Below, piece by piece: positions 1-32,998 of a stretch of 50,098 nt of DNA. Origin of the DNA: Patellaria atrata CBS 101060 (taxonomy: Eukaryota); assembly GCA_010093705.1 (NCBI GenBank), contig MU006089.1:1004157-1054254 (forward strand), given 5' to 3'. The first letter of the stretch is position 1, and every line of letters begins with the position of its first letter. A program made the position numbers and the translations under genes. The notes beneath the pieces are model-generated. The model worked only from the letters and a program-made list of their open reading frames with translations, was not told where the DNA came from and ran no database searches.

Positions 1-3000
1 CTTGTGCGCCACCGCAATCACGGTATGACTGGCGAACTTCTCTCGGATGACTTTCTGCATAATATCGTCTGTTTTACTGTCGATACTGTACAATCCGTTA
101 GTATACGAAAAAGGAAAGAAATTATGCCAAGACCTCGGGTCGATCATTCAGCAAAAGGAATTATCTTACCTGCTCGTGGCTTCATCCAAAACTAACACCG
201 TACTTGGTCGAAGCATCGCTCGTGCGAGACAGAACAACTGCCTTTGTCCGTGTGACAAGTGGAGGTTGTCAATATCAGCATCCAAACCTCCTTTCCGTTT
301 GATGATTTCCCACAGTTGAACCGATTTTAGCGCTGACACTATCGCCTCGTCCGCTGCTGTGCCCGTTGGGGTTGCGTTCAGTCGTACGCTCCCTTTGAGG
401 ATGTACGCATCTTGCGGTACTCCAATAAGTCTCGAGCGTACCTCATTGCGAGGAACAGTCGAGATGTCAACGCCATCCACTATGATGGATCCGCCGGCTA
501 GTTCTAGCATGCGGAACAGCGACAGAATCATTGAACTCTTTCCACTGTTCGAACAAAGTTAACATCGGATCTCGACATTTAGATGATTCGACTTAATTGT
601 CATACCTTCCGGTACGCCCACAAATTCCTATTTTCTCGCCTGCACGTATGGTAAACGAGATATTTTTCACCACGGGTTCCGACACCCTATTACCAGATTA
701 GCATCACAAATACATACGATAAAGAACGAAACGCTTACTTGTACCCGGCCGATACAGATCTGAATTCGATTGCTCCCTTTGAAGGCCATGATGGTGGGGG
801 TGTATCATTTTCACTTTCCAAATCCTCAGAGACGGCCTCAGCAGTAAAATTCTTGATCCTTGCGATAGCCCCGATGTGGGTTTCAAGCATAGTCCAGAAG
901 GTGATAAGCATCTTGATACTCTGACTGAACATGATGACATTTAGCAATGCTACACCCACATAACCGGCACTAATTGTTCCACGTAGTTTTACTACTAGAA
1001 CAATCAACAGTACGGCGATGGCGGCAACCATCAAGTCAAGTACTACGGTCAACCAGCGCTGAACCGAGAACAAGAGGTAGAAAGGTCTTTGCGAACGATC
1101 TAACATTTCACGGTTCTTGTCTTCGAAGTCCTGCTGCCATCCGAACGCTCTCACGGTTGCGAGTCCGTTAAGGCATTCAATAAAGTGTGAGTATAGAGGA
1201 GACTTAGCTTCCAAGTCCAAGAACCGAAGTTGTCTTGAAGTTCGGAGGTAGAACTTCTGGATGAAATATATCGCCGTCAGACATATCGGGAAGGCGATTG
1301 CCGCATACACGGACGCGACACCGATGAGGACCATCTGTGCAATGACCAAGACGAATGTCGCAAACGTATTCAGAGCAGATATCGGTAACTCCATATCAAT
1401 GAGCTGGAGATCTTGACTGAATCTGTTGATGGTAATGCCAGTATCTGTTGTTGCGAAGAAAGAGAGAGGAGACCTTGTTGGTATTGTTAACTTGGACCAT
1501 CCAGTTGCACCACGTGGATTGTACCTACTTTAAGACTGTCGTCAAGAGTGTCCAATGGAATCGCTCCCCCGATCGAGGCACCATGGTGATAATCATCTGC
1601 CTGGACATTCGGTTAGACTTCACCCTCGTGGAGTTTGTGAACCTGTCGAGGAACTCACCAGCAACTAACAACAAGCGATAGGATTGCTAAACCCCCTAGA
1701 AGACCGTAGATTCCGAGATAGTATCCGAGCCTCTCGTTAGGGTCCTCCGCATTAGCAGTTGCCCACCATTTAAGCCAAATATCTGTGGTACCATATGTTA
1801 GTGTGCATCATCAGGCGAAATAGATGGAGTATACTGACTCGGGAATGAGAAACAAAATACGAAACTTGTGATTGCGAAGACGAATATGAATGTAGGGAAC
1901 CAGCCAATCGATCCAACGTAGTAAATATAGATGGAAACATCTCCAGTACGTCTGTTACTTTCGGCTTTTGTTGACTCATCGGTTTCAACAAGCTTAGCGA
2001 TTTCGGGCTTCACTTCGTTTAGGGTAATACTGCTGTTCGACTTCTCCATATCATCCAGGAAGGAATCGTCACGACCCTTGGATGCCTGGAGGTCGAAGCT
2101 TGAAATATAACCTCCTAGTTTGGCTAGTTCCTCGAACGTACCTTGTTCGGCAATATGGCCATCGCTCGTTAGGACTACTACATAATCTGCGTCTGGGACT
2201 CGTTTTGCTACGTCGGTGTTAGTCGCGAAATCTTCCCACCTACTACCATTACTGTTAGAACTTACTGGAAGAAGAAGCCATGATAACAGTAGAGTTGCTC
2301 CCTCGGAGCAGCCTGAACACATCACGGAAGACACGTGACTCTGTGTCCGAGTCAAGTCCACTGAGCACATCATCAATTATAACTAGCTCCCGTTGTGCAT
2401 ATACTGCTCTTGCTAAAGACTGCAACACGATATATTAGTTTGGCACGGTTTTCGAAAACGCATGGGTACTTACGATTCGTTGACTTTGACCGCCACTCAA
2501 CGCTATACCTTTGCTCCCAATCCAGGTATCATCTCCACGTGGTAGTTGTCGGAAATCTTCCTCCAGAGCACAAGCCCTAACGACCGAGGCATACCATACC
2601 GCGTTGAAAGGTGTGAAACCTACAATACTCTCCTTGATCGTTCCATTCATTAACCAGGGAGTCTGATCGCAGTAAGCGACCGACAGCGAAGACACCTGGA
2701 CTATGCCCTTCATGGCAGGAATCTCTCCCAAAATAGCTTTGACGAGTGTCGACTTTCCACATCCCACAGGTCCAACTATCATCGTTAGCTTTCCCCTGGG
2801 TACCACGATGCTTATCTCGTGTAACAAAGGTTCCTTGTCCATATCCCAACCGAAGTTGCCATCCTGGATGACAACCGCGTCAGGATGGAACAACGAGTTC
2901 TGCTCCGATTTCTCCGTTGAACTTTCTGTCAAATCGCTCTGACTCTTCTCCTGTGAACTCCTATAGTCGATGGTATAGTTATTCATTGGCCTTGATCGTG

Positions 3001-4958
3001 CATCCACACGCGGTTCAGTCTTGATGAAAGCTTCAATACGATCAAAGCAGCCAATGGCTCCCATGAACGTGGCTAATGCCATGATAAGAGAAGCGAGTGG
3101 TTCGGACAGTAAAGCGAAAAGAGACAGAGATGTGAACACTCTCGCAGTATCCAAAGTCCGAGTGCCATTGTTCTTTGCCAGGACGGAGAAGACCGCAAAA
3201 GTAAGAATAGGAGCCACAACTGGTGTTATATAAGCTATGAGAGGTCCGGTTAGTCTTAACTCGAGAATCATGTCTTAAAGTAATCTAAACATACAGATGG
3301 CCATATTCCAGATGAGAAGCTTTCTGAACTTCTTCGAAATCTGCAACTCTTCCACTCTGAGGTCATGGATGTTCTTCTGAAGAATTTCAGTGAGGCCACA
3401 CATCTTCACTCCTTTCATCGCTCCGAGCATAGCAGTAGTGGCTGCTATACGTCTCTCGATAGCCTCGAGCCATAACTGTTGGCGAGCCATGACTAGACTA
3501 GTCACAATAAGAGATCCGACCATCGAAACTGTTTACTCACGTGATTAGCGTCACGCTTTGGTTAAAACGGATATATACATACTTATCGCGACGGCAATTG
3601 GAATCAAGCAGGCCACACCAAGTTGTCTGTACAACAAATAGATAGCTAGGGCAATTTCGATGCTGTTACCATACAGTTCCGGCATTGTCTGCCAACCAGT
3701 TGCGATCCGCTCTATATCTGCGCTCATAAGTGTTAGCGAGGCGGAAGGATCTACCGACTGGATGCTCAGATCGGCCGTCTTCCGAAACAACATGGATACT
3801 AGGCCACCCCTTGCCATCGTTATCGCTCTGTAGGTCAGGTGTTGATATTGTCCGGTGGTCACGGCCATGCCAAGATAGACGATGATGTATGCACCGATTA
3901 GACCGTATCCGATGTTCGTAGTGTGCTCATCAACAGGTTCTTGAGACAAAGAGATAGCTCGATTGATCAAGAACGGCTGGCAGAACTGGAAGCCGATAAG
4001 GCATAGTCGTGGTACCGTGATCGTGAGAATGGGCCACTTGAGAGTTCGAATAGTGGTCCAAAATAACGCGTGTGAACCCTTTTTCGAAACTTTATATACG
4101 TTAACATCATTCAACGAAATGATATGTCAAGACAACTCACCTCTATTCCATCCGGCATGCAGCAATTTTGACAAATAAGTCGACTGAAGATGTTTATCCA
4201 GAAAATACAGGTCGTCGAGCGCCAGCAAGTTACCATAACCCCTGAGAAACAGTGGGTTCAGCCACCAGAAAAATCCTCTGCTGATAGGGCTAGCGATCGC
4301 TTCTTTCGGCTCATCTTTATACTCTGGTTTAAGATATCGACGCTTCTCCAAGGACTCAAGCACAAGCAGCACAAATTTTACAACGGTGCTTATCGTCAAT
4401 ACAATTGCGTGGCTGGACATGTACCCTTGCAGCCATAACGTCCTTGACTGCGCAATATCAAACAAAAGAGAGAAGAAAAGATATCCATTTATTATCAAGG
4501 ATGGTCGCAGAGAGTGGATGTGCTCTGCGTAAGAAAGTAAGGGCAGAAGCAATGACAAGACCAAGAGCAAAGCTGCCGATGGAATCGAAACATCGGTTCG
4601 TCCTGTTTTATTCTGCGCCCATAGGACGAGTAACGCAAGCTGAAGCGCGCTGAATATGACCCCAAATATCTGTGAGAATCTCGATGTTAGATTTCGGTAT
4701 CTCTGTTCTCGATTATGTGTCCTAACATACCAACTTCGCCGTGAGTAGAATGCCTCCGGTAGCCTTCGCGGATTTTGTGAATAGGTACCATATACGAAGT
4801 GGTGCTATGAGTAAGAATACGGAGACGATCGGTACTGATAAGATACTCTGCTCGAACAGCAGGGTGAAGTCGAATCCGCCGCGACAATGTTCTGCGTAAG
4901 GACCAAAGGTGTTATCGATACGCTGGCACGACAGCGACGATGGAGAGGGCGCTGCCAT
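1..4958 (-). CDS. ABCC/MRP-type full-size ABC transporter (TMD0-TMD1-NBD1-TMD2-NBD2); C-terminus truncated by the window edge
   Basis: ATG at 4958 (MAAPSPSSLSCQRIDNTFGPYAEHCRGGFDFTLLFEQSIL). An open frame is restored by 12 GT-AG introns read by hand: 4670-4730, 4090-4140, 3529-3582, 3235-3294, 2420-2473, 2208-2265, 1783-1838, 1601-1658, 1474-1528, 687-738, 545-605, 86-169. NBD1 has GPVGCGKS, LSGGQ and VIIDD. NBD2 has GRTGSGKS (split by an intron), LSHGQ, VLDEATS and VAHK at the window edge. TMD2 motifs NRFSQD, RQLRFLDLEAKSPLYSHF and QRWL are present. Confidence 0.95.
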
Positions 4959-6217
4959 TGCTGGATGTTTCGTCGGTTGTCAGTTGTCAGTTCGAGGGAA
5001 CGATGCTCAGCAGAAAGCAGCGCGCTGGGTGTGGATAAACAGGCCTCACCTGGACACGGAGAGGGCGTTCGGTGCGTTATGGAGCAGAGCCGCAGAGCCG
5101 TTCAGTTCGCCATCATCGACGTCTATGATGAGCTACTGGAAAATTCCATCGACGAGAACGGCAGTCGAAGAGAAAGTGGTCCAAGCGAATCCCTGTAGGA
5201 GATCTCGAAAACTTGGTGTGCTTAAAGAACATGCGCGTCAGGTTAAGATCGTCATCATACATGATACGTACATGGTGTAACAATACGGTTCCGTGTCGAA
5301 ACTAGCACAACAGCAAGGAAATGTGCAAAAAACTTGCTGTGCACGTTATGCCTGCTGTGGCTACCCGTGTACAGCGTGTAGCAAATTCTTTTCTACCGGC
5401 GCTGGACCGACGGTACACGGTAAATGCCACCGCGTGGCCGGCATGAGGCAATATATTACAGGAACCCAAATATAGACGCTTTGGGACTGCCGACGAGAAT
5501 CACGTTACATGGGGGGACTACTGGGTGATGCTGCCAAAAGCCTGTAGGTCTGCAAGAAAAACTGCAATATAATCAAGGGAAGCCCTGAGCAGCACTGAAG
5601 CCGAGTGGAATTCGGGACGAAAGAGCTGGGTAGAGTGGATACAATTCATCAGGGAGAGCCCGTTTCCACATGCGGTATGCCGGGATGCCATCAGACATAT
5701 TAAAAGGGTAATATTCGAAGAGATTTCTAACGGCAAGTTATGGAAAGGGCAGGTTGGTATTATGGAAAAATGCTCGTATGAGCATGTATATCCGCCTGTG
5801 TGGCATCGATCTACGTCGCTAAAAGATGTGCGCCATGGGGCTAGGGGAACCCGTCGTGCGTGGCGTCAGCTGGTAAGATCCGTGGTCCCTGAGCTAATCT
5901 CGAGTTCAATTTTGTGGGGAGAAATTATTGGCTTAGATACTCCAAGCAGGCCCACCCAGCGTGCATCAAGTTGGGACTATTGGTTAAGGGGTAAGGGCAT
6001 GGGAAAAAAAATACTTTTTTGACAATTTGACAGGCAAGCGTAGGCTGCACCGCTGCTGCAAGCACCACAGGCTATGGATCTCTCTGAAACACAAAACCCT
6101 TTTTGGGGCGTTTGAGGTCGCCAGTTGTCGCTCTCCCGGGAAGCCGGCTGGAAGGCGCCATGTCTTTTGGCTGATTCGTCTCGACGACTCTGGCACTTTG
6201 GACCTCGCCGTTGTATC

Positions 6218-6260
6218 CCTGGACCTTGCCTGGACCTTGCCTGAACCTTGCCTGCACTTC
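6218..6260. repeat. 11-bp tandem repeat (CCTGGACCTTG x ~4, degenerating) in the ABC/NRPS divergent intergenic region
   Basis: CCTGGACCTTG CCTGGACCTTG CCTGAACCTTG CCTGCACTTC read directly from 6218. Confidence 0.85.
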
Positions 6261-6945
6261 TCTTAGACTTTCCCTGGATCCACCCTTCATGCTTCTCGGG
6301 AACCCATTTGACAGTTTTGTACCTTCTCACAGCTTCTTAACACCTTTTACACTGCTGGCCGCCCTCGATGTTGCGGCCACTCAAGGCGCCGTGCGGAGTG
6401 CGGGGAGATCTGCGCCGGCTTTGCTCTCTCTTCGCACCAACGAGATCCCGGACATCCCCTCCCGTCCCCTTGTCGGCGCCACCCGGTCGGGTCGTTATGA
6501 ATAACTTGCCATCCGCCCAATAATGGTATTGTGATAGACCACTAGTCGACAATACAAACCCCCTAACGCCGCGAAGGGCAAAGAAGGATCAATGCTATCG
6601 AAATTCCATCGACGCTTCGCTGTCCATCAATAGCGGGAATGCCCCCACCACATACACCACATTCACACACTACTGCGGCTATGAATCCTGTCAATCTTCT
6701 GATTCCCTGTAGCAGCTCAGGGGCGGTTAGAGACTTAGAGTTCTGCTCATCGTGATCATCATGACGCTCATCTACCGCATCGGGTAGTCGAACCTGTTTG
6801 GACTATGATCAAACTGTCATACCAAGCCACACCGCTTTCCTTCTATCCTATCCTCTATCTCTCCTTTCCGTTAGTCCCCTCAGTAGTCCCCTACGATCGT
6901 TTTCTAGGGCAAAGGGATCGACCCTTGGACCCCTCACATCTTTTG

Positions 6946-6972
6946 TTCTTCTTCTTCTTCTTCTTCTTCTTC
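6946..6972. repeat. (TTC)9 microsatellite in a pyrimidine-rich tract
   Basis: Nine perfect TTC units. Confidence 0.95.
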
Positions 6973-8775
6973 TCCCTGATCTACACGCCTTAACAACCTT
7001 ATTTCAAGTCACTATTACATGGTGATTTCGACTGAGTTACACAGCTAACGATTTACTAGTCCTATAGAACTTTTCTCAATACACCACTATTATTCGACTG
7101 CAACGTTTTCTGTCAGATCGTCCCTGCTGAAGGCCGCGATCCCCTCAGATAAATAAAGGGATTCATTGGTTTATGCAGCTTAAGTCATCGCTTGCCCATG
7201 CGGCCGCTATTTTGGCTGGCACGATCTTCGCATGGGTTTTCCAAGACTTCAGCCTCAGTATCCTTGCTCTGGCGCATGCTGAATTGACCTCGTATATGTC
7301 GATGCACACGGACCTGACATGCAAATTCTGCCTTTGGACCTGTCGTACAGCACAGTACCTCCCCGAAGTGTCACACTTGGCCGCTTCATCCGCTTGGAAG
7401 TCTCTACTACTGTGCTGTCAGCAAAGCAGCCGATGCTCGCGATATTCCCAATCGGTATGCCATCAATCCATTATTCTGCAAACCCACCCACGTTGATGCT
7501 CTTCGCCGTTTCGTGGAACCACGAAACGACGTTCAACATCTTTTGGGATTTGGAACTTGTGCATTATTTACACTTTTCTGTAATGTGCTCGCCCCGAGCC
7601 AAGTTTCAGTGGCAGTGGGGCCAAGTACCGGTGGGTCAAGTTAACTACCAGAGTACCTCGAGCTCAGGACTGCTCAGTTACTTTGGTATAGTACTTTGGG
7701 CAAGCGCTACCCACTCTCGAAATGATTCTTTTGACCGCAATCATCCCGCACCATTATACTGGTATTTATCCTTATACGTCATCAAAATTTATTCGGTTGT
7801 TCGTTTGGCCAAGGGAAAACTCTGATCTGAAAGCCTTTCTTCATGTTTTCGAACCCCACACCCTGGCTTCGGACTTTCCCATACTCGTCTTAATTTGAGA
7901 CTACATTCAACCGATTGAGTCTGCACAACGGGACGTTACACTAACATCTGACTCTACGATTGCGATGGTCGTTTTGACTTCGCGGCAACCTTCTAGCGTG
8001 GCAACGCTTCGATGGAAGCTTGCACAGAAAGAAAGATGCATCTTCCCTGAAAGAGTAGCAATAGTGTCCATAGCGCCGGTCTAACAAACACGTCTCCCCC
8101 GGACTTTCATTCCGCCGAAATTTGGAATTCGACGTAATTGTTAAAAATAATGACGATCAAGCTGAAGGGACTATTGGAAACTTGTAAATTGTTTTCAATG
8201 ACAATATATTTTCAGCCGATAATCGTGCCTGTAAACCTGGAGGACGGTACTACTGTATTCTCCCAATTCAGGCCTTAATCAACTTAGTCACGGTCTATCT
8301 GTTGGTATGATTCGAGTTTATTCGAACTGCTGGATAAGGGTTAGATTAATGATCGGCTTCTGTGCATATCCAGTTATCCACCACGGCCAGAGATTCCCGA
8401 TCAAGCCAGTTGCGATACTGGCGACTTTCCAAAATGCAACCCCTTGCCGCTGTGACTTCGAGGTGCAATGCCGGCAGGGCGTCTCTATATTTCTTACTTT
8501 GCTTGAATTCAATACCTGGGACTGCTGGACGCCACCCTGCAGGCACATCTTTACCAGATGAGTTCGAATACGCCACATCTCCTTTGGTCACGTAATCGAG
8601 CAAAGCTTCCTTGGATCGTGATCCCCTGTATCAATATTTTCGTCTGGTACGTGCGTATGGCTGGTGAACGATCATCTGCATACCTGTTCCCAAGTCACAT
8701 TATCCGAATACGGATATGTTTCGACCTCATGCCCTGTGTCGTCAATGGCTGATCTTAACAATCTGCAGAGCCAGC

Positions 8776-8832
8776 ATGTCCGAGGATGTGGTTGTTGTTC
8801 CACCTGGAGGCGATAGTGAACCAGTAGTGTGA
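8776..8832 (+). promoter_or_regulatory. Candidate upstream ORF (MSEDVVVVPPGGDSEPVV*) in the putative NRPS 5' leader
   Basis: ATG at 8776 and TGA at 8830-8832. It lies 7 nt after a branch/acceptor-like GCTGATCTTAAC...CTGCAG (8768) and before a GTATGA donor-like site (8848). Confidence 0.3.
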
Positions 8833-9142
8833 TAGTGTGTTGCTGTTGTATGAATAGATCGCGTTCCGGTCAACCGGCTTGCTGTGGGTTCTAAACAAGT
8901 TTTGATTGCGAGTTATTTCGTAAAAAAGGTGTAGAGATCTATTATCTCAAAACCAAAACACCGTCTTCCAACAGTCGAGAGCACTCGTACTACCAATACA
9001 GGAATCTTCCTGAGATCGTGAGATTGTCCATGGCCTGATAGCTCACTACAGCAACTAAACGCGTATCTAGGTTATTCTTCTGTTCGATTCCTCGACTCTC
9101 TCTTTCCATCCCTACGAGATAAAAGTTTTACCATAAAACATA

Positions 9143-12100: not shown

Positions 12101-15100
12101 TCGTCTGCAATTGAGAAGAGCCAACAGTCTCTGAACCCGGAAGTGGGTCCCATCTTTGCTGCCGACCTTATAGAGGTCGATGGTGGAGAACAGCTCCTCT
12201 TCATGACCGGACATCATTTGTGCATTGATCTCGTTAGCTGGAGAGTGATACTAGGAGACCTTGAAGAATTGCTCACGAATACCGACACGTCCGCATCACT
12301 ATCGAAACCAATGCCTTTCCAGGCTTGGAGCAAGCAACAAGCCGAGCACGCCAGATCTCTTTCCCTGAGTAGAGTCCTCCCTGTCGACGACGTTCCTGCA
12401 GGAGACGGTGTATACTGGGGTATGGACGGAGTTCCTAATCTGTACGGAGATGTGCTCCGCCAAGGCTTCGAGCTCGATAGCTCAACAACTTCGAAGCTCA
12501 TGAGCGACTGCCATCAAGCTCTACGCACTGAAACTGTTGACTTACTTCTATCAGCACTTATTCATGGATTTGCACAGACATTCACGGATAGGGATGTCGC
12601 TCCTATCTACAACGAAGGCCACGGCCGTGAGATCTGGAATTCAGATATCGACTTGAGCAGAACAGTAGGTTGGTTCACCACCATGTATCCGCTATACGTG
12701 CCGGGAGCGACTTCTAGTGATATTATCGACATCGTAAAGGGAGTAAAAGACTTCCGTAAACGCCTCCTCGGTAACGGTCGCCCGTACTTCGCTAGTCGCC
12801 TTCTCACGCCTGCTGGTGACGAGAAATTCCATCACCATTGGCCTCTAGAACTTACATTTAATTACCTTGGTCAATACCAGCAACTGGAGCGCCAGGATGC
12901 TTTGTTGCGTCCTGTCGAAGAAATGGCTGGTGAGGCTCGCGGTGCAGGTGGAACCGCAGATGTCGGCCACTTGACTCCTCGTTTCGGGCTTTTCGAAATC
13001 TCAGCTGTCATTGCCGCTGGCAAGCTTCGATTCTCATTCACATTCAATCGCCACATGAAACATCAACAGGAGATCTACAATTGGGTTTCGACAGTTGAGG
13101 ATTCGCTCAAAGTGATCTCACAAAGACTCGTCCAAATGCAACCTGAGCCGACTCTGAGCGATTACCCATTGATGTCTCTGAACCGTAGCAGCCTCCAGGA
13201 GCTAATCACTCAACGCCTTCCTGCCATAGGAATCCGCAATATGAGCGAGATTGAAGATATTTACCCTTGCTCCGCGATGCAGCAAGGTCTATTGCTGAGT
13301 CAGACGAAGGACGCTGGATACTATGCTGTTCAAATTACTTGCGAAGCTAAACATCAGCAAGGTAGCATGGTAAATGCTGGTAAACTCACCGCAGCTTGGC
13401 AAAAGGTAGTCAATCGCCATGCGTTACTTCGCACTGTATTCCTAAACGACAGTAACAATGGTATGTATGACCAGGTTGTCTTCCGTACGATTGATGCCCC
13501 AATCGTTCAACTGGAATCCAACAACACCGAGCACGCATTACAGATGCTTAAGGAACAGCGAACTCTGCATGAAAATGCAGGTACTGTGCCCCATCGCTTC
13601 ACTGTTTGCCGTGTAGGAAACCAACAGACCTTCTTCAAATTGGAGATGGGCCATACTATCATGGATGGAACATCTATGTCGGTTCTACTGCGTGACCTGA
13701 AACTAGCATATGAGGATAAACTCGAAGCTTCAGGACCCCTTTACAGCGAATACATCGCATACTTGCAACAACAACCCTTCGAGGAAGGTATCGAGTATTG
13801 GAAATCGTATTTGCGAGATGTTGAACCATGCCAATTTCCGATTCTCAACGACGGTCTTCCCAAACCCCGCCAGCTTCACTCGATTCGCGTCGGCTTCAAG
13901 AACATGTCAGCGCTGCAGCAGATTTGTCAGAAGTATGGTGTTACCTTATCTAATGCTTTCCATACGGCCTGGGCCCTCACTTTGAGGTCTTATACAGGTT
14001 CCGATGGAACATGCTTTGGATATCTCATCTCCGGTCGTGACATTCCAATCGACGGTATTGAGGAGGCGGTCGGACCTTTTATCAATATGCTCGTATGCAG
14101 GGTGGATATGCCCAGCAAATCTAGCATCGTCGATGTCATGTCCCAGGTGCAAAAGGACTACACCGACAGCATTCCACACCGTTATACCTCGCTAGCTGAA
14201 GTTCAGCATGCGTTGAAGTTGGGTGGAACAGCCTTGTTCAACACCGCGCTCTCATATCGACGCCTCCCGCCTGATACGGATGTTGTTGAACCTGGTGTTT
14301 CCTTCACCGAATGCGCCCCCACTTTTGATCCCACTGAATATGATGTTTCTATTAACGTTGAAGTAGCGGACCACGATGCATACATTGACCTCGATTACTA
14401 TGTTGACTACCTGTCTGATGGCCAAGCATCAAATGTTGCAAACACATTTGTTCAGGCTTTGGAGAATATTATTCAGCAAGCAGACACCAGAATCGAAAAA
14501 CTCGACGGCTTGAGCGAAAACGACCGACACCAGATCATGAGCTGGAACAGCCAGATGCCGCCGACGATCAATAAATGTGTTCACGAAATTGTTCAGGAGC
14601 GCGTCTTAGAACGCCCCCAAGCGTCAGCTGTCGAAGGCTGGGACGCCAAATTTACGTATGTTGAACTTAATAAGAACGCTAACCTACTTGCACAGTACTT
14701 GATGAACCTTGGAGTCGGCGCGGAAACTTTAGTGCCTGCATGCTTCGATAAATCCGCTTATACCGTTGTTGCGATGCTCGCGATAATGAAAGCTGGTGGT
14801 GTTGTCGTAAGTTAGATCATCGGAGCAGTGTTCTCCACGAAATGCAGGACTTGTTAGTTAACGTCTTTACTTCAATAGGTCCCATTAGGTGCAAACCACC
14901 CTAAATCTGCACTGGAAGATCGTGTTCAAGACACTCAGGCCAGTATCGTATTGGCATCCACAGAACGTGCACCTATCTTTGATGACGTAGTACCGACTGT
15001 GGTTGCTGTCAATGCTGAGCTCTTGAAGGAACTCGCGGCCGAATACGGCCTTGTGGAGAATCCTGCTCGAAATGTCGTACCTGAAAATGGATGCTTTATC

Positions 15101-21100: not shown

Positions 21101-24100
21101 CTCCCGCTCAGTTTCGATGGTATTTCCAAAGTGCATTCCGCTATCAGTGAGATCGGAATAACTTCTCTTGAAGATATTGAAGATGTGTATCCTTCTTCAC
21201 CAATGCAACAAGGCTTACTCCTCAGTCAAATTAAGAATGCCGAGTTGTACTCTTACCACTGCAACTTCGAAATCCGCTCTACACAACCCGGGACATCTGT
21301 GGATATTGGGCGTTTTGCTCAGGCATGGCAAGCTGTGGTAGCGCGACATCCTGCGCTCAGAACCTGTTTCGCCAGTGCCACATTTGATGGAGCTCAGGAT
21401 CAGATTGTGCTCAGAAAGGCCACACCAAGGATCTCCTGGTTAGAAAGTTCGGATGAGAATGCCATCGTCCTTCTAAATGAGCAGCAACCAATCAACTGCC
21501 GCGATCTCCAACCACCTCATCGTATGATTATCTGCAAGACCGATTCTCAGCGTGTATTCTGCAGGCTTGAAATCAGTCACGCCATTTCCGACGGAACTTC
21601 CATGCCAATCCTATTGCGGGATATTATGAAAGCATACAGCGGAACTCTTCCCCACGACAAGTCTGGGCCTCGCTATAGCGATTACATTGCTTACCTACAG
21701 AGCATATCTAAGGAAGCTGACATCAACTACTGGAAGACTTATCTTACTGACATTGAGCCATGCAACTTCCCAGCCATCAATGACAAGGCAGAAGGCGCTG
21801 GAGAGTTGAAATCGGTGACCGTAAATCTTGGAGACAACATTGATCTCCAGAGCTTCTGTACAAAACATGGTCTCACAGTATCCAACGTGCTGCAATTTGC
21901 TTGGGCCCTTGTTCTGCGACACTATACCGGATCGAACGAAATCTGTTTTGGTTATTTGACCTCTGGTCGTGATGTTCCAGTAGCTGGAATCCAAGAAGCT
22001 ATTGGAGCATTCATCAACATGCTTATTTGCCGTGTCAACTTCAACCCAGAGGTTTCAGTGTCTGACACTCTAGATAAGATCCAGTCAGACTTTGTCGCTA
22101 GCATGTCCCACCAGACCTGTTCTCTCGCCGATGTTCAACACGAGTTGGGTCTGTCCGGTACCGCGTTATTCAATACGGCCTACTCTTTCCAGAAGCGCGT
22201 AGGTGGTCAGGATTCGAAATCTGATGCCATTGATTTCGACGTACTCGATGCTCATGATCCAAGTGAGTATAGCGTAACGGTCAATGTTGAACAGATGGAG
22301 ACTGGTACCGAAGTCAGCTTCAGCTACTGGTCGACTCACCTATCAGAAACCCAAGCGGAGAACTTAGCAAACACTTTCCACCACATCACGAATACCATAA
22401 CCCAACGCCATGTTGGTACCAGAGCCATTAAGGAACTGGACTGCTTCGGAAAGCACGGCAAGCAACAAGTGCTAAGCTGGAACAAGACGCTCCCTGCAAA
22501 GGTCAACAAGTGCGTGCACCAGGCTATCAAAGAACAAGCACGTCTCCGCCCAGCATCGGCCCAGGCGATCTGCGCTTGGGATGTTGAATTGACCTTTACT
22601 GAACTCGAAGAATCTGCAATCCGCCTCGCCCATCACCTTCGCAGCTTGGGCGTTCGCCCTGGTGTTTTCGTTCCGCTGTGTTTCGAGAAGACTGGTTACG
22701 CCATTGTCTCTATGATGGCCGTCAATTTGGCCGGTGGTGCATTTGTTCCCCTCGACTTCTCGCATCCTGTTAGTCGCTTGAAGAATTTAATCGATAACGT
22801 CAAGGCCAGTGCAGTGCTTTGCTCTCCAAAGCACGCCGAGAAAGTGTCGTCTGCAGCACCTCTAGCTGTTCCGGTTGATGGAGCTTTCATTGCAAGCTTA
22901 CCAACAGTTTCTTCATCGCTACCGGAGGTCGATCCAGATAGTCCTTCATATGTCATCTTCACCTCCGGTACAACCGGAATGCCCAAAGGAACAGTTATTG
23001 AGCATGCAGCGTTCTGTACCAGCGCTACAGAGCATGCCAGATCTATGTATATGGACTCATCGTCTCGTGTATTCCAGTTTGCCTCTTACACTTTCGATGC
23101 AAGCGTCATGGAAATCTTGAGTACACTTATTGTTGGTGGCTGCGTTTGCGTACCAAGCGAAGAGGAGCGTATGAACGACATCCCAGGAGCTATGGTCAAG
23201 AGGAATGTGAACTGGACCTTATTGACACCCTCTGTTGCAAACACACTCAAGCCCGAATCGGTTCCTACCCTGAAAGTCTTAGTCACTGGAGGTGAAGCCA
23301 TGTCATCTAGCCATATCTCCAAGTGGAAAAATCACTGCAGCATCATCAACGCCTACGGACCAAGTGAGTGCTCCGTCATTGCTACTACTAGCACGAAGGT
23401 CGACATCAACGGCTCTTTGGTGGACAGCGATACGTCGAACATTGGTCCTGCGGTCGGTGGTCGCTGCTGGGTTGTGGATCCCCAGAATCACAACCAGCTT
23501 GTCCCAGTTGGTGCAGTCGGAGAACTTGTTGTTGAAGGATGGATCGTGGCTCGAGAATACCTCAACGATCCTGCTAAAACAGCGGCGGCGTTTATTAGCA
23601 ACACGACATGGGGCCCTGAGATGGGAATCGCAAAGAATCAACGCATGTACAAGACGGGCGATCTAGTGAGATATAACTCTCGCGGACAGTTTGCCTTTAT
23701 TTCGCGCAAGGATACCCAGATCAAGTTGAACGGCCAGCGTATCGAGCTCGGCGAAATCGAGCACAACATCAAAGCGTGTCTACCAGACACATGCCAATCC
23801 GCAGTGGAGCTCGTCGTACCACAAGGAGGTCGCAGTGGTGCCAAAGCACTTGCTGTTTTCTACACCACGGAGAGCGCCAGAAGAGGCAGCACTCACAACG
23901 GCGACAAGTCTGCCCTATTCGCCTCTGACATGTCTCCTTCTGATGAACTCCTCCTACCTATGTCCGACGGTGCCCGTCTCATTGCGAAGAACCTCGAGAA
24001 CTCTCTCGGAGGCGTGCTACCCGCATACATGATTCCCTCTATTTATGTACCAGTCGCTAAGCTCCCTTGGACCAGTTCCGGCAAACTTGACAGAAACCGA

Positions 24101-27100
24101 CTCAAGACCATGGTACAGGCATTGGCTAAAGAGACAATGGCACCATACAGACTCGCCAATGTCGCCTCCAAATCTAAGAAGGCTCCAATGTCCGAACTCG
24201 AGACTAAACTAGCCAAACTTTGGGAGATCATTCTCCAACTGAAACCAGGATCGGTTGCCAACGATGACAATTTCTTCAGACTATCTGGTGACAGTGTTGC
24301 AGCCATGCGTCTTGTTGCAGCTGCTCGCACTGAAGGTCTTGTCCTAACGGTGATCAACATCTTCCGCAATCCCAAGCTCGCTGAGATGGCTAGTGCATGC
24401 ACCATCTTGGAAGACGATGATTTGACTGTTCTCAAACCTTTCGATCTACTTCTAAAGGGCGAATCCAAGGAAGCCACGATCGCGGATCTGGCTTCAGAGT
24501 GTCAAACCAAACCCGAAGCCTTGGAGGACGCTTACCCAGTCAGTGCACTTCAGGAGGGTCTCATAACCCTGACTATCAAGCAACCCGGAGCGTACGTGGC
24601 TCGGAATGTCTTCCGCCTTCCCTTACATGTTGATATCAATCGCTTCAAAGCAGCCTGGCACAAGGTTGTGGCGGAAGTTGATATCCTTCGTACTCGCATA
24701 GTCAACACGAAAGCTGGTTCCTTCATTCAAGTAGTAATGAAGGAGGACCCAATCACATGGAATTCTGCCCCAGATTATGACTCTGTGTTGGCTCAACCAA
24801 GCCATCTTCCTTCAAGGAATGGTGGTCAATTACAGCGTTTCACCATCACGGAAATTGACACCGCAGCTGAGGCAAGATACTTCATCTGGGAGATTCATCA
24901 CGCGTTGTACGACGGTTGGAGCATGCCTTTAGTTCTCAAGAGGGTTGAATCCGCGTACTTTAATACAGCGTCAAACGTGCCAAAAGCTCCTTACGCTCAA
25001 TTCATCAAGTATCTCCGCCTAACCGATCAGAAGGCTTCTGATACTTTCTGGAAGAACAAGCTAGCAGACTCATCCTCCATGCAATTCCCCGAGCTGCCTC
25101 ATTCTTCTGCCGAGCGCACTCACGATGGCCGCGTTTTCTCCCACAGTGCACCAATCAAGATTACTAGTGGCGACATCACAATGCCGACAGTCATCCGCGC
25201 TGCATGGACTTTCCTCATAGCTGCCTACACAGGCGCTGACGACGTAGTCTTCGGTGAAACCTTGACCGGTAGAGATGTCTCAGTCCCTGGCATCACCGAT
25301 ATTGTCGGTCCAACGCTTACAACAGTACCAACAAGACTTCAGCTCGATCGCAGCATTACTGTCAAGGAATTCTTGAACAGAATCCAAGAAGCATCCACGG
25401 CGGCAATTCCCTACCAGCATGCTGGTCTGCAGCATATCAAGAGACTGAACGATGATACTGCAAGGGCATGTGACTTCCAGAATCTTCTCGTCATCCAAAC
25501 TGCAGAAGGAAGGATGAACGATGGATTATGGGATCCTCAAAGCAGCGGTGTTGGCTCGAACTTCTTCACCATGCCACTCGTTGTGGAATGCAGAGCCGGT
25601 CCAAGCGATGTTGAACTAGACATCCATCATGACGCAAATATTCTGTCCCCATGGCAAGCAGAGAGACTTGCCTTCCAATTTGAAACTGTTCTCTCCCAGA
25701 TCAATTCCTCCCTACTTGAAGGTGGTAATCGCTTGGTCGCAGATATCAGCTCCTTCAGCCCACAAGATCAAGAGATGATCAGCAGCTGGAATGCCCATGA
25801 ACCACAACCACTCAACCTCACAATCCACGGATTGTTCAAACGGATTGCTCGATCTCAACCCGAAGCGGAGGCTATCTGTGCATGGGATATGAATTTGACA
25901 TACAGGGAGCTCGAGGACCGAGCATCAGCATTGGCTTCCTGCCTTGTTGAGCTAGGTGTCGGACGCGGCGTTCTAGTACCTGTTTGTGTTGATAAATCCG
26001 CAGTCGGAATCGTATCATACCTAGCCGTACTCATGGCTAACGGGACCTTTGTGCCATTAGATCCAAGCCATCCCATCGAACGACATATCCAAGTCTTCAA
26101 GGATACTGAAGCAACCATTCTTATCTGCTCACCTCAATACCAAGAACGATACGCTAGCAGTGTTAAGGCTATAATTGTTGCCAACAAGGAAACCATGATG
26201 AGCCTACCGCCAGCAACATCCATTCTGGAGGAGGCCACCGCAGCGACGCCTGACGATACTGCTTACGGAATCTACACTTCCGGTTCCACTGGTAATCCGA
26301 AGGCTGTTATGGTCTCTCATAACGCATTTGTTACCAGTTCCGAGGCTTACAGGACAGCAATGCTGATGGAACCGAATTCACGAGTCTTCCAGTTCGCTTC
26401 GTACACTTTCGATGTCGGTCTTATGGAAGTCTTCACAACGCTAACATATGGAGGATGCGTCTGCTCTCCCAGTGAAGATGAGAGGACCAGGAACGTTGGT
26501 GGAGCGCTTGCCTCATTAGCCTGCACATGGGCTTTCTTGACTCCATCAGTGGCTAGCATCATTGATCCGTCTGCTGTTCCATCTATGAGAGTCCTTGTTA
26601 CTGGTGGCGAAGCAATGTCCATCGAGACTGTTACGATGTGGGCAGACAAGCTTACACTCGTGAACGGTTATGGCCCAACTGAGGCCGCTGTTATTGCTGT
26701 GGTCAACAATCGCGTCTCCGAGCAGAAGGATCCTTCCAACATTGGTAAAGGTCATGGAACTTGCATTGCCTGGATCACCGACGCCAACAACCATGACCGA
26801 CTTGCTCCTGTCGGCTGTATCGGTGAGTTAATCCTTGAAGGCCCAATTCTTGCGAAGGAATATCTCAACAACCCGGAGAAGACCGCATCATCATTCATTG
26901 ATGCACCTTCTTGGCAATCAAACTTCGCAAGGCGAGATGGTCAGCAACGTCGCATTTATAAAACCGGTGATCTTGTCAAGTACAACGAAGATGGTAGCTT
27001 TATGTTCCTCGGCCGCAAGGATAACCAAGTGAAACTCAACGGCCAACGTCTTGAACTTGGAGAAATTGAACATCGTCTTGAGATTTCTGCAGATGTCCGC

Positions 27101-30100
27101 CACGCAGTCGTTGTCATGCCAAAGAAGGGACCATGCTCGAAACGTCTGGTAGCCGTTGTAGCTTTCAACGGCGAGGAAGGCGAAGATACGTCGCTCACTG
27201 CTGGTGAAGGCGCACTTGTTTGCGAAGAGAATCAATCGAAATCAACATTGACCAAGCTTTCTAAAGCCAGACGCAACGTGGCTGACCATCTTCCGCCATA
27301 CATGGTTCCTACCGTATGGGTACCAGTCAATGCGATTCCCCTTCTTGTATCTGGTAAATTAGACAGGAAGCAAGTTGAGCGCTGGGTGATCTCTATGGAT
27401 GAGACAACCTATGATCGCGTCATGGGCTACGAGGAAGACGAAGATTCGGCCGCTCCGACAACTGCCACTTCCAAACTTCTGCAGACTATCTGGTCTAAGG
27501 TCCTCAATATCCCCATCGAAAGGGTCAAACCCAACCGTTCGTTCATGCAACTTGGTGGTGACAGTATTACAGCCATGCAGGTTGTCGCAAGGTGCAGGAA
27601 GGAAAATATTACCAACCTTTCGCTCCATGACGTTCTTCGCAGCAAGGGGGTGGCGCAACTTGCACTAGTTGCTGGTACAGGCCATCAAATCTCATATCAA
27701 GAAGAGAAGGTTGATCAGGATTTCGAACTTTCACCGATTCAGCAATTGTATATGCAATGTGCTGGAAATCTTCCAAGGGGAGGCCATTTCAACCAGAGTT
27801 TCTCGCTCAAAATCACGCAGAAAGCAGAAGGTAAGACCGTGCTCCAGGCTATCAAGACGATCGTCTCTCAGCACAGTATGTTACGATCAAGATTCAGAAA
27901 ACAAGCCTCCGGCGAGTGGAGACAACGCATTACTACGGAAGTGGACTCTTCCTTCAGATTCCGAGAAATCAATGTTCCCTCCAAAGAGGAGATCATCCCA
28001 GGAGTCGAGGATAGCCAGAAATGTTTGGACGTAATCGAAGGACCTGTCTTTGCAGTCGATCTCTACAACATCAACGGCGGCGAACAAATGATTTTCCTAG
28101 CTGCCCACCATCTTATCATTGATATGGTGTCTTGGAGAGTCATTCTAGGAGATCTGGAGGAGTTTCTGAAAACAAACGCTCTCTCCGAAGAGAAGGGTTT
28201 GTCGTTCCAGACTTGGTTGTGCTTGCAACAGGACCGCGCCCAACGCATGGTCCAAAAGGGCAACAAGGTACTACCATTCAAGATTGCACCCGCGGAAATG
28301 GCTTTCTGGGGCATGGATACTACACCTAACACCTACGCCGATGTCATTTCTGAAGGCTTCGCCATGGACAAAGCATTGACGGAACCAGCGATCCAGGGCT
28401 GCCATTCCAGCTTGCGTACTGAGCCCATTGACCTGTTCTTAGCTGTGCTTTCACACGCTTTCAGTCGCATTTTCACCGACAGAAACACTCCAACCGTATA
28501 CAACGAAGGTCACGGACGTGAAGTCTGGGACACAAGCATCGATCTAACCCGCACCATCGGTTGGTTCACTACTATCTGCCCTGTTCACGTTCCCATTGAC
28601 AGAGAAGAGGACGATGTGGTAGAGACTGTGCGCAGAATGAAGGATCTTCGACGCCAAGTACCTGGCAATGGACGTGACTACTTCGCTCACCGTTACCTCA
28701 CAGCCGAAGGAAAATGGCAATTCGCCGATCACATGCCAATGGAAATCATCTTTAATTACCTTGGACGCATGCAGCAATTGGAGGCCGACGACTCTCTACT
28801 ACAGCAGATGGACTTCGTAGAGAAGAAGGAAGACCAGACACGCGTGTCCGACGTAGGTGCTAATACCCCGAGAATGGCACTTTTCGAAATCTCCACCGCT
28901 GTTATGGAAGATAAAATCCAATTCACGTTCTTGTTCAACAAGAAGATGAAGCATCAAGATCGTATCCGACAGTGGCTCAAGGAAACTGAGCGCCTCATGC
29001 GACAAGCAGTCAAGGGGCTCATGCGCGTTAAACCTGAGCCTACTCTGGCCGATTACCCACTATTGCCAATTACTTACGAGGGTATCAAGAAATTGGTCGA
29101 CGAGACCTTCCCCAAGCATGGAATTTCCCATCACGACGAAATCGAGGATATTTACCCATGTGCGCCAATGCAAGAAGGTCTCCTACTTGCTCAGCTCAAG
29201 GATCCCCGCGCATATCTATTTAATACAATCTTCGATCTCAGCTCACCCAAAGGAGAAAAGATTGATGGTAGGCGATTGCTGAAGGCGTGGCAAAAGGTTG
29301 TTGACCGGCACCCTGCCCTCAGAACTTTATTCGTTGATTCCGTCTACAAGGGCGGTGTCTTCGATCAGATTGTAATTGCACACGCCGAAAGCGGAGCCCT
29401 TTTCTACGAGTGCGAAAATTATGAGGAGGCGTTCAAGAAACTCGACAACATCCATCTTACAGAGACCCAGTACCTCGAGCATCCAAGACTCCCTCATCAG
29501 TTCACTGCGTGCCAGACAAAAGATGGTCAAGTTTTGATGAAGCTTGAGATCAATCACGCAGTCATTGACGGTGGATCTGCTTCCAATCTGCTGCATGACA
29601 TAGCTGCTGCCTATGAAGACCGCTTAACTCCTGGCTCTGGACCTCTTTACAGCGATTATATTTCATACATTAGAAGCGGCCCTCCAAGTGCTGACGTCAA
29701 GTTCTGGAAGGAATATCTCTACGAACTTCAACCATGCTACTTCCCTGTCATCAACACTGCACAGGATGCGTTGGAGCAGAAACGCCTCGCTTCCGTGGCG
29801 ATCAAATTTGATCGATTCGCAGAGCTACAAACTCTTTGTGAAAACCGAAAGGTTACCATGTCCAACATTATGCAAGCTACTTGGGCAATGATCCTACGCA
29901 AGTACACAGGGGCTCAAGATGTCTGCTTCGGGTATCTTACATCAGGCCGTGACGTTGATGTGAAAGGTATCCAGGAAGCTGTCGGAGCTTTCATTAACAT
30001 GTTGGTCTGTCGCGTTCAATTCACTGCTTCTGCAACACTCGCGGACGTTTTTCAGAGAGTGCAAAACGACTTCTTGGACTCCCTCCCTTATCAGCATTGT

Positions 30101-32998
30101 TCCTTGGCTCAAGTCCAGCATGATCTTGGACTTGCTGGTAAACCACTCTTCAATACCGCCGTTTCTATCCAGAATCACTCCATGGCCAGTGACGCCGCCG
30201 AGGAGACAATTATCTTCGAGCCTACATCCGCTCACGATCCTAGCGAAGTAAGATACCAATTCTACTTATATAATGACCAGTTTCTAATCATATTTTAGTA
30301 CGTCTTGACCGTCAATATTGAGACAGCGCGTAACGATGAGGGTGTCGTCTTCCGATACTGGACAAATATCGTTTCAGACGCACAAGCAGAACAAATTGCT
30401 GCTGATTTTGCACAGGTGCTTTCAGGCATCATTGATGAGCCAGACCAAGCGGTCATTCAAGTAGGAAAACCACAAGAAGTCAAGATGGAGCAGGTACAAG
30501 TACCAGAAAAGACTCCTGTAGTCGGAATGGACGCTTTCGAAATGACTGCGTTGTTGAGGAGTATTGTGAAGGAGTGTGTTGGTGAAGTCATTCAACAGAT
30601 GTTCAAGGATGGAGAATTAGTGAGATACAACAAAGGTGGAGTCAATGATATTGGCGAAGAGATTGGCGAAAAGATTGAAAGGACGGCGATAAAGAGAGTG
30701 CAGACTATCAAGCCCGAGGAGGAGCAGCATCAGCAGCAGCAGCAGGAGATCAAAGCAGTGGAACCAATCCCACCAACTACCGTCGAGATAGAACCTCGTG
30801 ATGTCGATGATCTAAGGAAGAAGGTCGCGTCACTTTGGAGTACCGTCCTGGAAGTACCTGAAGCGACGATTGAGAACGACGACAGCTTCTTCGCGGCAGG
30901 AGGTGATTCAATCCTCGCGATGAATATGGTAGGTATGGCTCGCGAGCAAGGTCTGCCTATGATTGTTGCAGATATCTTCCGTAATCCGGTTTTCGAAGAA
31001 CTCGTCAATGCCGTCGCAAATAATCAACTGGACGAACTAGCGGAGTCGGGTGCCACTGCGCAAGCAGTCATCGACTTGGTCAACGATCAGAAACCCGTCA
31101 CGACTGTTGTGAAGCTCGAACACAAGTCTTACGAGCCATTCTCTCTGCTCCGTACGAACCAAGTCGAGGACTTCCTTCAAGATCACATTTGCCCTAGGAT
31201 CCACGTTTTCCGAGGTGGAGTTGCAGATGTATACCCTGTGACTGACTTCCAAGGCCTTGCAGTTACAGGAGCACTCCTCGAATCTAAATGGATGCTTAAC
31301 TGCTTCTACTTGGAAGGAAATGGTGATGTTGATGTGGCTAAACTGAAGCGCAGCCTTTACCGTGTTGTTGAATCATTCGACATCCTGCGTACAGTATTCC
31401 TTTCCCACGAAGACCAATTCCTTCAAGTTGTTCTTCGACATCTCAAGCCAGAATTCTCCGTGGTCGACACAGATCAAGACTTGGCAGAGTTCACGTCCGA
31501 GCTATATCAAGCCAGTCGCAAGAACAGTCCTAAGATGGGAGAGTCGTACGTCCAGTTCACCTTAGTCAAACACAAGGGATCCAAACAGCACCGCATCCTT
31601 ATGCGCATCTCTCACGCTCAATACGACGGTGTTTGCTTGCCGAGAATCCTCATGGCACTCCAAGAAGCGTATGTTGGTAATTCTATTCCTTCAACGCCAC
31701 CGTTCGCGACATTCGTCAGGAGCTCAACGGGAGAGGCGTCAGATGCTAGCTTCAAATACTGGAAGAATCTCCTACAAGGCTCGAAGATGACCAACATCAT
31801 TCAACGTCCTGGTCCCAACTATACTGTCAGCGCAACTACCACTATCAAGCGTGTTGCTACTCTTCCCTCTCTGTCGTCAGTCAACGTCACCCCTGCGACG
31901 GTAATCAAAGCTGCATGGGCTGTGACTCTTGCACAGCTTTCCGCCAACTCGGATATCGTCTTTGGACACGTTATCAGCGGAAGAAATGCCAACGTGTCGG
32001 GTGTCGACAAGATTGTTGGACCTTGCTTGAACATGGTTCCGGTTAGAGTCAAATTCCAACCATCATGGACGGTACTCGATCTTCTTCGCTTCGTCCAGGA
32101 CCAACAAATCTCTAACATGCCATTTGAGTCGCTCGGATTCCGTGAAATCACCAAACACTGCACTGAATGGCCAGACTGGACAACATTCACTTCGGTCGTT
32201 CAGCACCAAAATATTGAACAGGGCGGCACTGTCTCATTGGGTACCAACGAATACACTCTTGGTGCCCTCGGATCCCAGGACGACTTCGCAGATTTCACCA
32301 TCGTCTCAACGCCTGTGTTAGGCGAACCTGATCGCATCGAAATCTGCTTGAGCTATCCACAAAATCCTTCAGTGACTGCCACATTTGCCAACAACCTTCT
32401 CGACACTCTCTGCGACCTCGCCAGCAAATTCGCCGAGGAACCATCCGCAGATCTCCCATCTCCAACAGAGTTTGACATGATGAAGAAGAACACTCTGAAG
32501 GACACTATGGAGAAGCCGGCCACAACGGCAGCGACAGCCGATCTTACTGGTTTAAGCAAAGAGGAGCTTTTATCACTTTCCAATACCCTCACCCGCGCTT
32601 GGTCAGCAGTCCTCCGGGACGAAAAGGGTGGCTACGTTACCATCTACCCCACATCATCATTCTACGAGCTTGGAGGAGACATCATGGATCTCGCTCGTGT
32701 CGCTCAGCTTTTGGCACAGGATGGTTTCTACATCCGTATTGAGGATCTGGTCGACCACCCGATCATGCTCGAGCAGTTGGCTCTTCTCTCTCTTGCGAAT
32801 GCTGGTGAGAAGGAGAAGGAGAAGGAGTTGGACTTGTTCCATAGCAATTCGTCGTCGAGTACGCTACAGGAGCCGGAACATATTGTTGTGAGGCAGAATA
32901 GCAAGGAGGGTCTTTGGGCCAAGAGTGTGGGACGGTTTGCGAAGAAGTTTACTAGAAAGAGGTCGGATAGGGAGGTCCCTAGAGCATTGGATGTTTGA
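9143..32998 (+). CDS. Multimodular non-ribosomal peptide synthetase, NPS4/NRPS4/Pes1/HcpA-like, 5 A domains, ~7,891 aa
   Basis: Exons 9143-9658, 9716-14806, 14879-30247 and 30299-32998 join in frame (introns 9659-9715, 14807-14878, 30248-30298). Five A domains carry (F/Y)TSG(S/T)TGxPK, YGP(S/T)E, YxTGDL and SGKLDR. T motifs: SGDS ~11666, GGDS ~16352, GGDS ~19607, SGDS ~24284, GGDS ~27554, GGDS ~30899, GGDI ~32672. E domains: HHLCID ~12212, HHLSID ~20156, HHLIID ~28106, each with NEGHGRE and RTxGWFT. C domains: GHTIMDG, HHALYDG, SHAISDG, HHALYDG, NHAVIDG and terminal SHAQYDG ~31610. Confidence 0.97.

Follow-up and report, generated by a model that had tools for sequence, protein, structure and literature searches.

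In a 50,098-nucleotide stretch of the genome of Patellaria atrata CBS 101060 (contig MU006089.1, positions 1,004,157 to 1,054,254 of the forward strand; hereafter, the window), a giant nonribosomal peptide synthetase (NRPS) gene lies next to a gene for an ATP-binding cassette (ABC) transporter of the ABCC family. In our estimate, with a probability of roughly 0.8, this locus is the P. atrata member of the NRPS4/HcpA/Pes1 ('WARP') group; its product would be a cyclic D-L-D-L-D-L hexapeptide whose last residue is provided by a carrier domain loaded in trans, and the peptide would be exported by the ABCC transporter. This reading is built on the models of the two genes, the order and classes of the domains of the synthetase, its collinearity with a Fusarium enzyme, and the conserved pairing of the NRPS and ABC genes, all of which were observed directly. 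The WARP group comprises NRPS4, HcpA, Pes1, ChNPS4 and AbNPS2; its canonical gene cluster combines an NRPS gene and, upstream of it, a gene for an ABC transporter, every second module of the NRPS having an epimerisation domain, and deletion of orthologous genes in several ascomycete classes results in wettable phenotypes (bioRxiv 10.64898/2026.07.13.738209). The P. atrata locus adds a member from the Patellariales (Dothideomycetes) to this peptide system, which is now proposed to underlie the water-repellency of fungal surfaces; the general picture of the family is unaltered, the locus being an ordinary member of a known gene pair. No paper came up in a literature search that combined the species name with 'nonribosomal'.

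A divergent pair of synthetase and transporter genes

The NRPS coding sequence spans 9143..32998 on the forward strand in four exons. The annotated 'nonribosomal peptide synthase [Patellaria atrata CBS 101060]' (P0001, 7891 aa) is placed on it residue for residue, at 9143-9658, 9716-14809, 14882-30247 and 30299-32995, with the stop codon at 32996-32998. This protein was recovered with residues 1000-1900 of the largest exon as the query and was 100% identical over the searched region, where the next-best NRPS matches were 56-57% identical. The three introns (9659-9715, 14810-14881 and 30248-30298) are all in frame and canonical (GT..AG), and the 23.7-kb reading frame is intact.

On the reverse strand (1..4958), a second annotated protein of the same species (P0121, 1479 aa) matches the sequence exactly, from an ATG at 4958 through 13 exon pieces (4958-4731, 4669-4142, 4090-3584, 3526-3296, 3232-2474, 2419-2267, 2205-1840, 1780-1658, 1599-1528, 1472-738, 685-608, 546-172 and 87-1); at residue 1418 the protein reaches base 1, and its last 61 residues are encoded beyond the window. 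Given the exact placement of both annotated proteins, the two genes are divergent, with start codons at 9143 (+) and 4958 (−), 4184 bp apart, which bears out the head-to-head arrangement of an ABCC gene and a giant NRPS gene given in the preliminary description.

In the Pfam analysis, the transporter showed TMD0_ABC (35.3 bits; cut-off 27) together with ABC_membrane and ABC_tran, each in two stretches. Both Walker A motifs, at aa 654 and 1261, are intact, the signature motifs are LSGGQ and LSHGQ, and the Walker B motif reads VIIDD in the first nucleotide-binding domain (NBD1) and VLDE in the second (NBD2). Such asymmetry of Walker B, with DD in NBD1 and DE in NBD2, marks the ABCC family, and the homologues of P0121 are labelled subfamily C/MRP by their sources. 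Judged by these features, P0121 is a long-form, MRP-type ABCC transporter, with an N-terminal membrane domain (TMD0) followed by two halves, each with a transmembrane domain (TMD) and an NBD (TMD0-TMD1-NBD1-TMD2-NBD2).

The pairing of the two genes is conserved. Homologues of the NRPS and the transporter have neighbouring locus tags in two genera, Chlorociboria (g5755/g5754) and Cudoniella (g5108/g5109); they also occur together on a single contig in Glonium (33 kb), in Mollisia (65 kb) and in several other records. A metagenome scan with P0121 yielded nine loci (L001-L009); three of them (L003, L005 and L009) extend 8.9 kb or more upstream, and in all three a collinear NRPS homologue is present on the opposite strand; in L004, with 4 kb of upstream flank, no NRPS homologue was seen. 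In L009 (1-10000), whose ABC homologue is the closest one (63% identity), the NRPS seems to begin with T-E-C-A-T-C (T, carrier; E, epimerisation; C, condensation; A, adenylation domain): unlike L003, L005 and the window, no A domain was detected there in the 3.5 kb between the first T domain and the ABC gene.

Domain architecture of the synthetase

Domains were called on overlapping 500-aa pieces of the protein compared with NCBIfam and Pfam, as well as with profiles derived from the protein's own domains. The full domain order is C*-A1-T1-E1-C2-A2-T2-C3-A3-T3-E3-C4-A4-T4-C5-A5-T5-E5-C6-T6-CT-T*, where CT is a terminal condensation-like domain, and C* and T* are a condensation-domain remnant and a carrier-like domain, respectively. 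Five A domains were found by NCBIfam, Pfam and the own-domain profiles, rather than the six that had been assumed, together with six intact T domains; the sixth module is C-T only, with about 100 residues between C6 and T6. The core motifs A3, A7 and A10 are kept in all five A domains, and GDS is kept in all six T domains.

The distribution of E domains, by contrast, is as initially described. The family TIGR01720, which represents the C-terminal half of E domains, matches 6 of the 30 overlapping pieces; these make up three regions, in modules 1, 3 and 5, and the TIGR01720 regions, the E clade of the domain tree (see below) and the motif HHLxIDxVSW agree in assigning E domains to these modules only. 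The terminal SHAQYDG-type C domain that had been noted is present too, the sequence ISHAQYDGV being found at residue 7430, in the last C-like domain.

The domains, all encoded on the forward strand, are located as follows. Module 1 consists of A1 (9971..11464), T1 (11573..11806; SGDS) and E1 (11813..13204; HHLCIDLVSW, called from TIGR01720, the E clade and the motif), and module 2 of C2 (13253..14545; after-E type, GHTIMDG), A2 (14594..16159; intron 2 lies inside) and T2 (16259..16492). Module 3 includes C3 (16607..17857; the type found after a module without an E domain, HHALYDGW), A3 (17906..19399), T3 (19514..19747) and E3 (19766..21133; HHLSIDVVSW, from TIGR01720 and the tree); it is followed by C4 (21179..22480; after-E type, SHAISDG), A4 (22529..24082) and T4 (24191..24424) in module 4, and by C5 (24524..25789; C3-like type, HHALYDGW), A5 (25838..27355), T5 (27461..27697) and E5 (27716..29095; HHLIIDMVSW, from TIGR01720 and the tree) in module 5. 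The A-less sixth module starts with C6 (29144..30505; after-E type, NHAVIDG, with intron 3 inside) and continues with T6 (30806..31039; GGDS), a carrier without an A domain of its own. Next comes CT (31223..32491; SHAQYDG), which was recognised from its motif, its separate clade and its match to TqaA. At the N-terminus, C* (9146..9922, aa 2-241) is a remnant with only the C-terminal half of a condensation domain and without the His motif; it matches positions 178-432 of the profile of the protein's nine C and E domains with 51.6 bits, and a Pfam scan detected nothing over this region.

Domain classes and the sixth module

A FastTree phylogeny built from seven proteins, each contributing nine C-type domains (63 in all), separated four groups: E1/E3/E5 (HHLxIDxVSW), C2/C4/C6 (xHxxxDG), C3/C5 (HHALYDGW) and CT (SHAQYDG). 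All nine C-type positions cluster with the matching positions in the other proteins of the tree. C6 clusters with C2 and C4 and, therefore, resembles a condensation domain for D-configured donors. The carrier domains show a parallel division, with mutual identities of 38-42% among T1/T3/T5 and 38-46% among T2/T4/T6, compared to 24-34% across the groups. For T6, the identities are 38-39% with T2 and T4 vs 24-26% with T1, T3 and T5; given that it clusters with T2 and T4, T6 looks like the carrier of a non-epimerised residue. Thus, the D-L-D-L-D-L pattern predicted for the product from the outset is supported by evidence internal to the protein, namely, the separation of the C2/C4/C6 and C3/C5 clades and the grouping of T6 with T2 and T4.

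The closest solved relative of CT is the terminal condensation-like domain of TqaA (PDB 5dlk, 5egf and 5dij; E = 2.4e-41, 145.5 bits), whereas bacterial C domains score at most 87.8 bits; the likeness to TqaA is confined to this terminal domain. TqaA is a trimodular fumiquinazoline synthetase, and in fungal CT domains the first His of HHxxxDG is generally replaced. The P. atrata protein has a TqaA-related domain of this kind in its C-terminal part, with an altered His motif, and cyclising activity is predicted for it.

The linker between C6 and T6 contains a possible relic of an A domain. A stretch of 27 residues (30593..30673, aa 7091-7117, MFKDGELVRYNKGG) resembles the core motif A7, and in an hhalign comparison, the profile of 12 linker sequences matched an A-domain profile with a probability of 66% (E = 5.6e-5), compared to 0.3% and 0.2% for the C and T controls. 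This similarity suggests that a sixth A domain was deleted in the past. A degenerate sixth A domain, as distinct from a relic, was considered and rejected, the short A7-like stretch being all that remains.

A second unusual element, T* (32573..32815, aa 7751-7831), is located within the 170-residue tail that follows CT. This carrier-like domain lacks the phosphopantetheine serine, having GGDI in place of GGDS. The Pfam scan did not detect it, but hhalign matched the profile of 12 tail sequences to that of 96 T domains with a probability of 98.3% (E = 2.2e-14). Of the 16 relatives examined, 12 have T*; the remaining four, all from Hypocreales, lack it, their proteins ending at CT. Tentatively, and with considerable doubt, the locus could be taken to encode an undescribed WARP hexapeptide in whose synthesis T* is a working pseudo-carrier, aiding either the trans-charging of the sixth module or the positioning of T6 for cyclisation; such a function would explain the broken colinearity rule in these enzymes. 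T* and the possible A7 relic both provide testable handles on the origin and the charging of the A-less module.

Relatives and known systems

Full-length comparison of the synthetase gave identities of 55.3% with P0002, 50.9% with a Zopfia protein and 49.7% with a Glonium protein. Five A domains are found at equivalent places in all 12 relatives examined for them, and six good T domains in all 16 examined for those. The layout of five A domains with a C-T-C end (12/12) thus extends to Dothideomycetes, Leotiomycetes, Sordariomycetes and a lichen fungus among the relatives that are named. Many NRPS homologues are only about 6800 aa long (e.g. P0005, P0009, P0012 and P0058). The one that was checked, P0058, ends inside C6, its alignment stopping at residue 6992 of the P. 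atrata protein, which is the position of the third intron; these homologues look like gene calls cut at the intron rather than a shorter form of the enzyme.

The resemblance to the NRPS4/NPS4/HcpA/Pes1 layout that the preliminary description had pointed out holds: the P. atrata locus has a conserved divergent ABCC gene upstream of the NRPS gene, E domains in alternate modules, five full modules plus an A-less C-T (within the three-to-six range of WARP synthetases) and a CT-type end, and the synthetase is homologous to, and collinear with, the F. graminearum protein. The latter (P0280) was found with a Fusarium query and does not itself carry the name NRPS4, but its close relatives are named FpNRPS4 (P0282) and NRPS 4 (P0283). 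Residues 23-7055 of P0001 align with residues 20-7036 of P0280 at 44.9% identity over about 7100 aligned positions, and residues 7150-7697 align with 7079-7621 at 43.7%.

In Fusarium graminearum NRPS4, five modules are followed by a C-terminal C-T-C tridomain and one module is reused; the product is cyclo(D-Ala-L-Leu-D-allo-Thr-L-Pro-D-Leu-L-Leu), known as fusahexin, which, like the apiosporins, contains a heterocycle (bioRxiv 10.64898/2026.07.13.738209). A review gives module 5 as the reused one (PMC10967133). The P. atrata enzyme shares with it collinearity over nearly the full length, the five A and six T domains, the E domains in modules 1, 3 and 5, the C-T-C end, an ABC transporter in the cluster, and an identical A4 code (see below). 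The two differ in that the overall identity is only 44.9%, the Fusarium protein ends at CT whereas the P. atrata protein adds T*, and the N-terminal half C domain is recognisable in P. atrata only. Furthermore, the Fusarium cluster is said also to contain genes for a glycoside hydrolase and a major facilitator superfamily transporter (PMC10967133), neither of which was seen on the right side of the P. atrata cluster.

HcpA of Penicillium chrysogenum and Pes1 of Aspergillus fumigatus, the fungisporin synthetases, which we compared through published papers, are of the same WARP class. They share with the P. atrata enzyme the alternating E domains, an A-less module of a C and a peptidyl carrier protein (PCP) domain for which charging in trans is proposed, and a terminal C domain with a PCP, and they make cyclic hydrophobic D/L peptides, as is predicted for P. 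atrata; they differ in having four A domains and making tetrapeptides, and the domain order of HcpA is non-linear (bioRxiv 10.64898/2026.07.13.738209; PMC4041764). The Dothideomycete members, NPS4 of Cochliobolus heterostrophus and AbNPS2 of Alternaria brassicicola, have been tied to the hydrophobicity of the conidial surface and to the integrity of the wall, and ChNPS4 is tetramodular (PMC2823734), in contrast to the five A domains in P. atrata; this comparison, too, is by description. The ABC homologues of Bipolaris maydis and Alternaria are 55-56% identical to the P. atrata transporter, and no synthetase from Pleosporales was found among the best 120 NRPS matches. Given that the five-A layout occurs in Dothideomycetes, the tetramodular form of Pleosporales is not the sole form in this class. 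Finally, NRPS4 of Apiospora arundinis, also compared by description, resembles the P. atrata locus in having an ABC transporter in a WARP cluster and E domains in alternation, and uses a module iteratively, as is proposed for P. atrata, but is hexamodular, starts with T-C-A-T-E and makes heptapeptides with an imidazolidinone ring (bioRxiv 10.64898/2026.07.13.738209).

Substrate pockets

Ten-residue pocket codes were read from an alignment of 55 A domains and compared with those of the F. graminearum enzyme. The A1 codes (DAVVVAGVCK in P. atrata vs DVTLVGCVVK, Ala, in F. graminearum) are identical at 4 of 10 positions, those of A2 (DNEDAGQINK vs DNADAGCVNK, Leu) at 7, those of A3 (DALLAGAVVK vs DAMLVGAVVK, Thr) at 8, those of A4 (DAMLVGAVIK in both, Pro) at all 10, and those of A5 (DVMFVGGVIK vs DIGFVGGVFK, Leu) at 7. 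Each of the domains A1 to A4 is closest to its positional counterpart in Fusarium.

A fusahexin synthetase would be expected to have the same pockets as the Fusarium enzyme in all five A domains, and the P. atrata enzyme does not, although the code is a weak discriminator here. On this weak basis, the P. atrata product is probably not fusahexin. The preliminary description had come to the same view from the A-domain pockets; the conclusion is favoured by the identity of 45% between the two synthetases and by the divergent A1 code (4/10), whereas the A4 code (10/10) and the low discriminating power of the code detract from the pockets as its grounds. Given that the product probably differs from fusahexin, the locus is worth pursuing in the search for a new cyclic D/L peptide.

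Proposed assembly of the peptide and alternative explanations

From the characterised members of the family, we infer the trans-loading of T6, the cyclisation and export of the peptide and a role in hydrophobicity; anything said about its amino acids is likewise tentative. In the proposed pathway, A1 to A5 would load T1 to T5, and E1, E3 and E5 would turn residues 1, 3 and 5 into the D form; the D-configured donors would then be accepted by C2, C4 and C6, and the L-configured donors by C3 and C5. Because the sixth module (C6-T6) is devoid of an A domain, T6 would be charged in trans, and the sixth residue would depend on this loading. The charging domain would most likely be A5, by analogy with fusahexin, in which case residue 6 would be the L form of residue 5. 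Release by CT through head-to-tail cyclisation would yield a cyclic hexapeptide with the D-L-D-L-D-L configuration, which the ABCC pump probably exports and which probably serves surface hydrophobicity.

The choice of the charging domain is one step where an alternative has to be considered, namely, that an A domain other than A5 loads T6, and residue 6 accordingly is not the L form of residue 5. HcpA offers a precedent, in that a trans-acting, distant A domain is proposed to serve its A-less C-PCP module (PMC4041764); in addition, A5 of P. atrata is the least conserved of the positional counterparts of the Fusarium enzyme (43.4%). Nevertheless, we consider loading by another domain unlikely, in view of the collinearity with Fusarium NRPS4, in which module 5 is reportedly the one that is reused, and of the lack of any out-of-order A domain in the P. 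atrata enzyme.

The predicted peptide could also be made but perform a role other than surface hydrophobicity, for example, as an antimicrobial, a signal or a toxin. The distance between the proteins leaves some room for such divergence, the P. atrata synthetase being 45-55% identical to its relatives and 45% to the characterised Fusarium enzyme; however, the conservation of architecture and synteny, along with the wettable phenotypes of the orthologue deletions in several ascomycete classes (bioRxiv 10.64898/2026.07.13.738209), makes a different role improbable.

Alternatively, the C6-T6 module might add no residue, with T6 simply receiving the pentapeptide for cyclisation by CT, so that the product would be a cyclic pentapeptide (D-L-D-L-D). 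Such an outcome would be in line with the composition of module 6, which lacks an A domain and retains, at most, the possible 27-residue relic, and with the observation that peptide length and module number are not always equal in the WARP family (bioRxiv 10.64898/2026.07.13.738209). It is, however, hard to reconcile with the intact xHxxxDG motif of C6 and the clustering of this domain with C2 and C4, condensation domains at work after an E domain, or with the preserved serine of T6 and its clustering with T2 and T4; moreover, five A domains suffice for a hexapeptide in the collinear Fusarium enzyme (bioRxiv 10.64898/2026.07.13.738209; PMC10967133), and the A-less C-PCP of HcpA is reportedly loaded in trans (PMC4041764). 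We therefore judge the pentapeptide quite unlikely. A silent or non-functional cluster in P. atrata is more improbable still, the reading frame being intact along with the catalytic motifs of the A, T, E, C and CT domains and the Walker motifs of the transporter.

Several observations weigh against the hexapeptide reading or temper the evidence behind it. The TIGR01720 scores are 28.7-59.5 bits, under the curated cut-off of 74.2, and, because of this, the assignment of the E domains rests on sub-threshold matches in combination with the tree and the motif; no support values went into the reading of the C-type domain tree. Core-motif anchors, and not a reference structure, fixed the code positions, and the Fusarium codes for Thr and Pro differ at one position only, so that the codes cannot name substrates, and substrate calls from the 10-residue code were rejected on this account. 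A5 is 43.4% identical to Fusarium A5 vs 44.6% to Fusarium A3. No RNA run was listed among the sequencing runs that cover the locus, and the two that were compared with it are represented by continuous DNA contigs, which run through the introns and the intergenic region without splice joints. Finally, the left flank may contain further cluster genes, so that the two-gene, untailored system of the preliminary description is a tentative reading; the known products of the family, fusahexin and the apiosporins, bear heterocycles. In Fusarium, the neighbours of NRPS4 in its cluster are described as uncharacterised (PMC10967133).

The intergenic region

The two start codons are separated by a divergent intergenic region of 4184 bp (4959..9142), presumably a shared promoter region. 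A gene hidden in this 4.2-kb gap was considered and rejected. None of the 11 open reading frames (ORFs) located wholly or mostly in 4959-9142 matched a Pfam family; for the longest ATG-initiated ORF of the gap (7319-7822), a search of 1.84 billion proteins gave no relative at E ≤ 0.001; and comparison of the gap with the equivalent regions of L001-L009 gave no tblastx or blastn match. Because of these negative results at the level of Pfam, protein searches and cross-locus comparison, we treated the gap as non-coding. Within it, the forward strand of the interval 6000-8000 is rich in C and T (GC skew −0.175, AT skew −0.141), and a (TTC)9 repeat is located at 6946-6973, where contigs of public assemblies break.

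The right flank

On the right, the cluster is bordered by a housekeeping gene for a SER1-like phosphoserine transaminase (33477..34847, forward strand; NF003764 and Aminotran_5). The NF003764 match (271.5 bits, against a cut-off of 253) starts at about nucleotide 33612, that is, about 600 bp past the NRPS stop codon, in agreement with the position originally given for SER1. Further housekeeping genes on this side encode Saf4/Yju2, FGAM synthase, MCM7 and a Pex2/12 RING protein. Among the ORFs tested at 34.3-39.1 kb, Saf4/Yju2 was the only Pfam match and no family of tailoring enzymes or transcription factors was detected; this result and that for the gap ORFs conform to the earlier statement that the window contains neither. 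A run of reverse-strand ORFs at 35200-38300, the longest being 37461-38249 (262 aa), matches no Pfam family and may represent an uncharacterised gene between SER1 and Saf4/Yju2, probably without a tie to the cluster. At the right end of the window, 440 N residues (49323-49762) are located inside ORFs that overlap on both strands.

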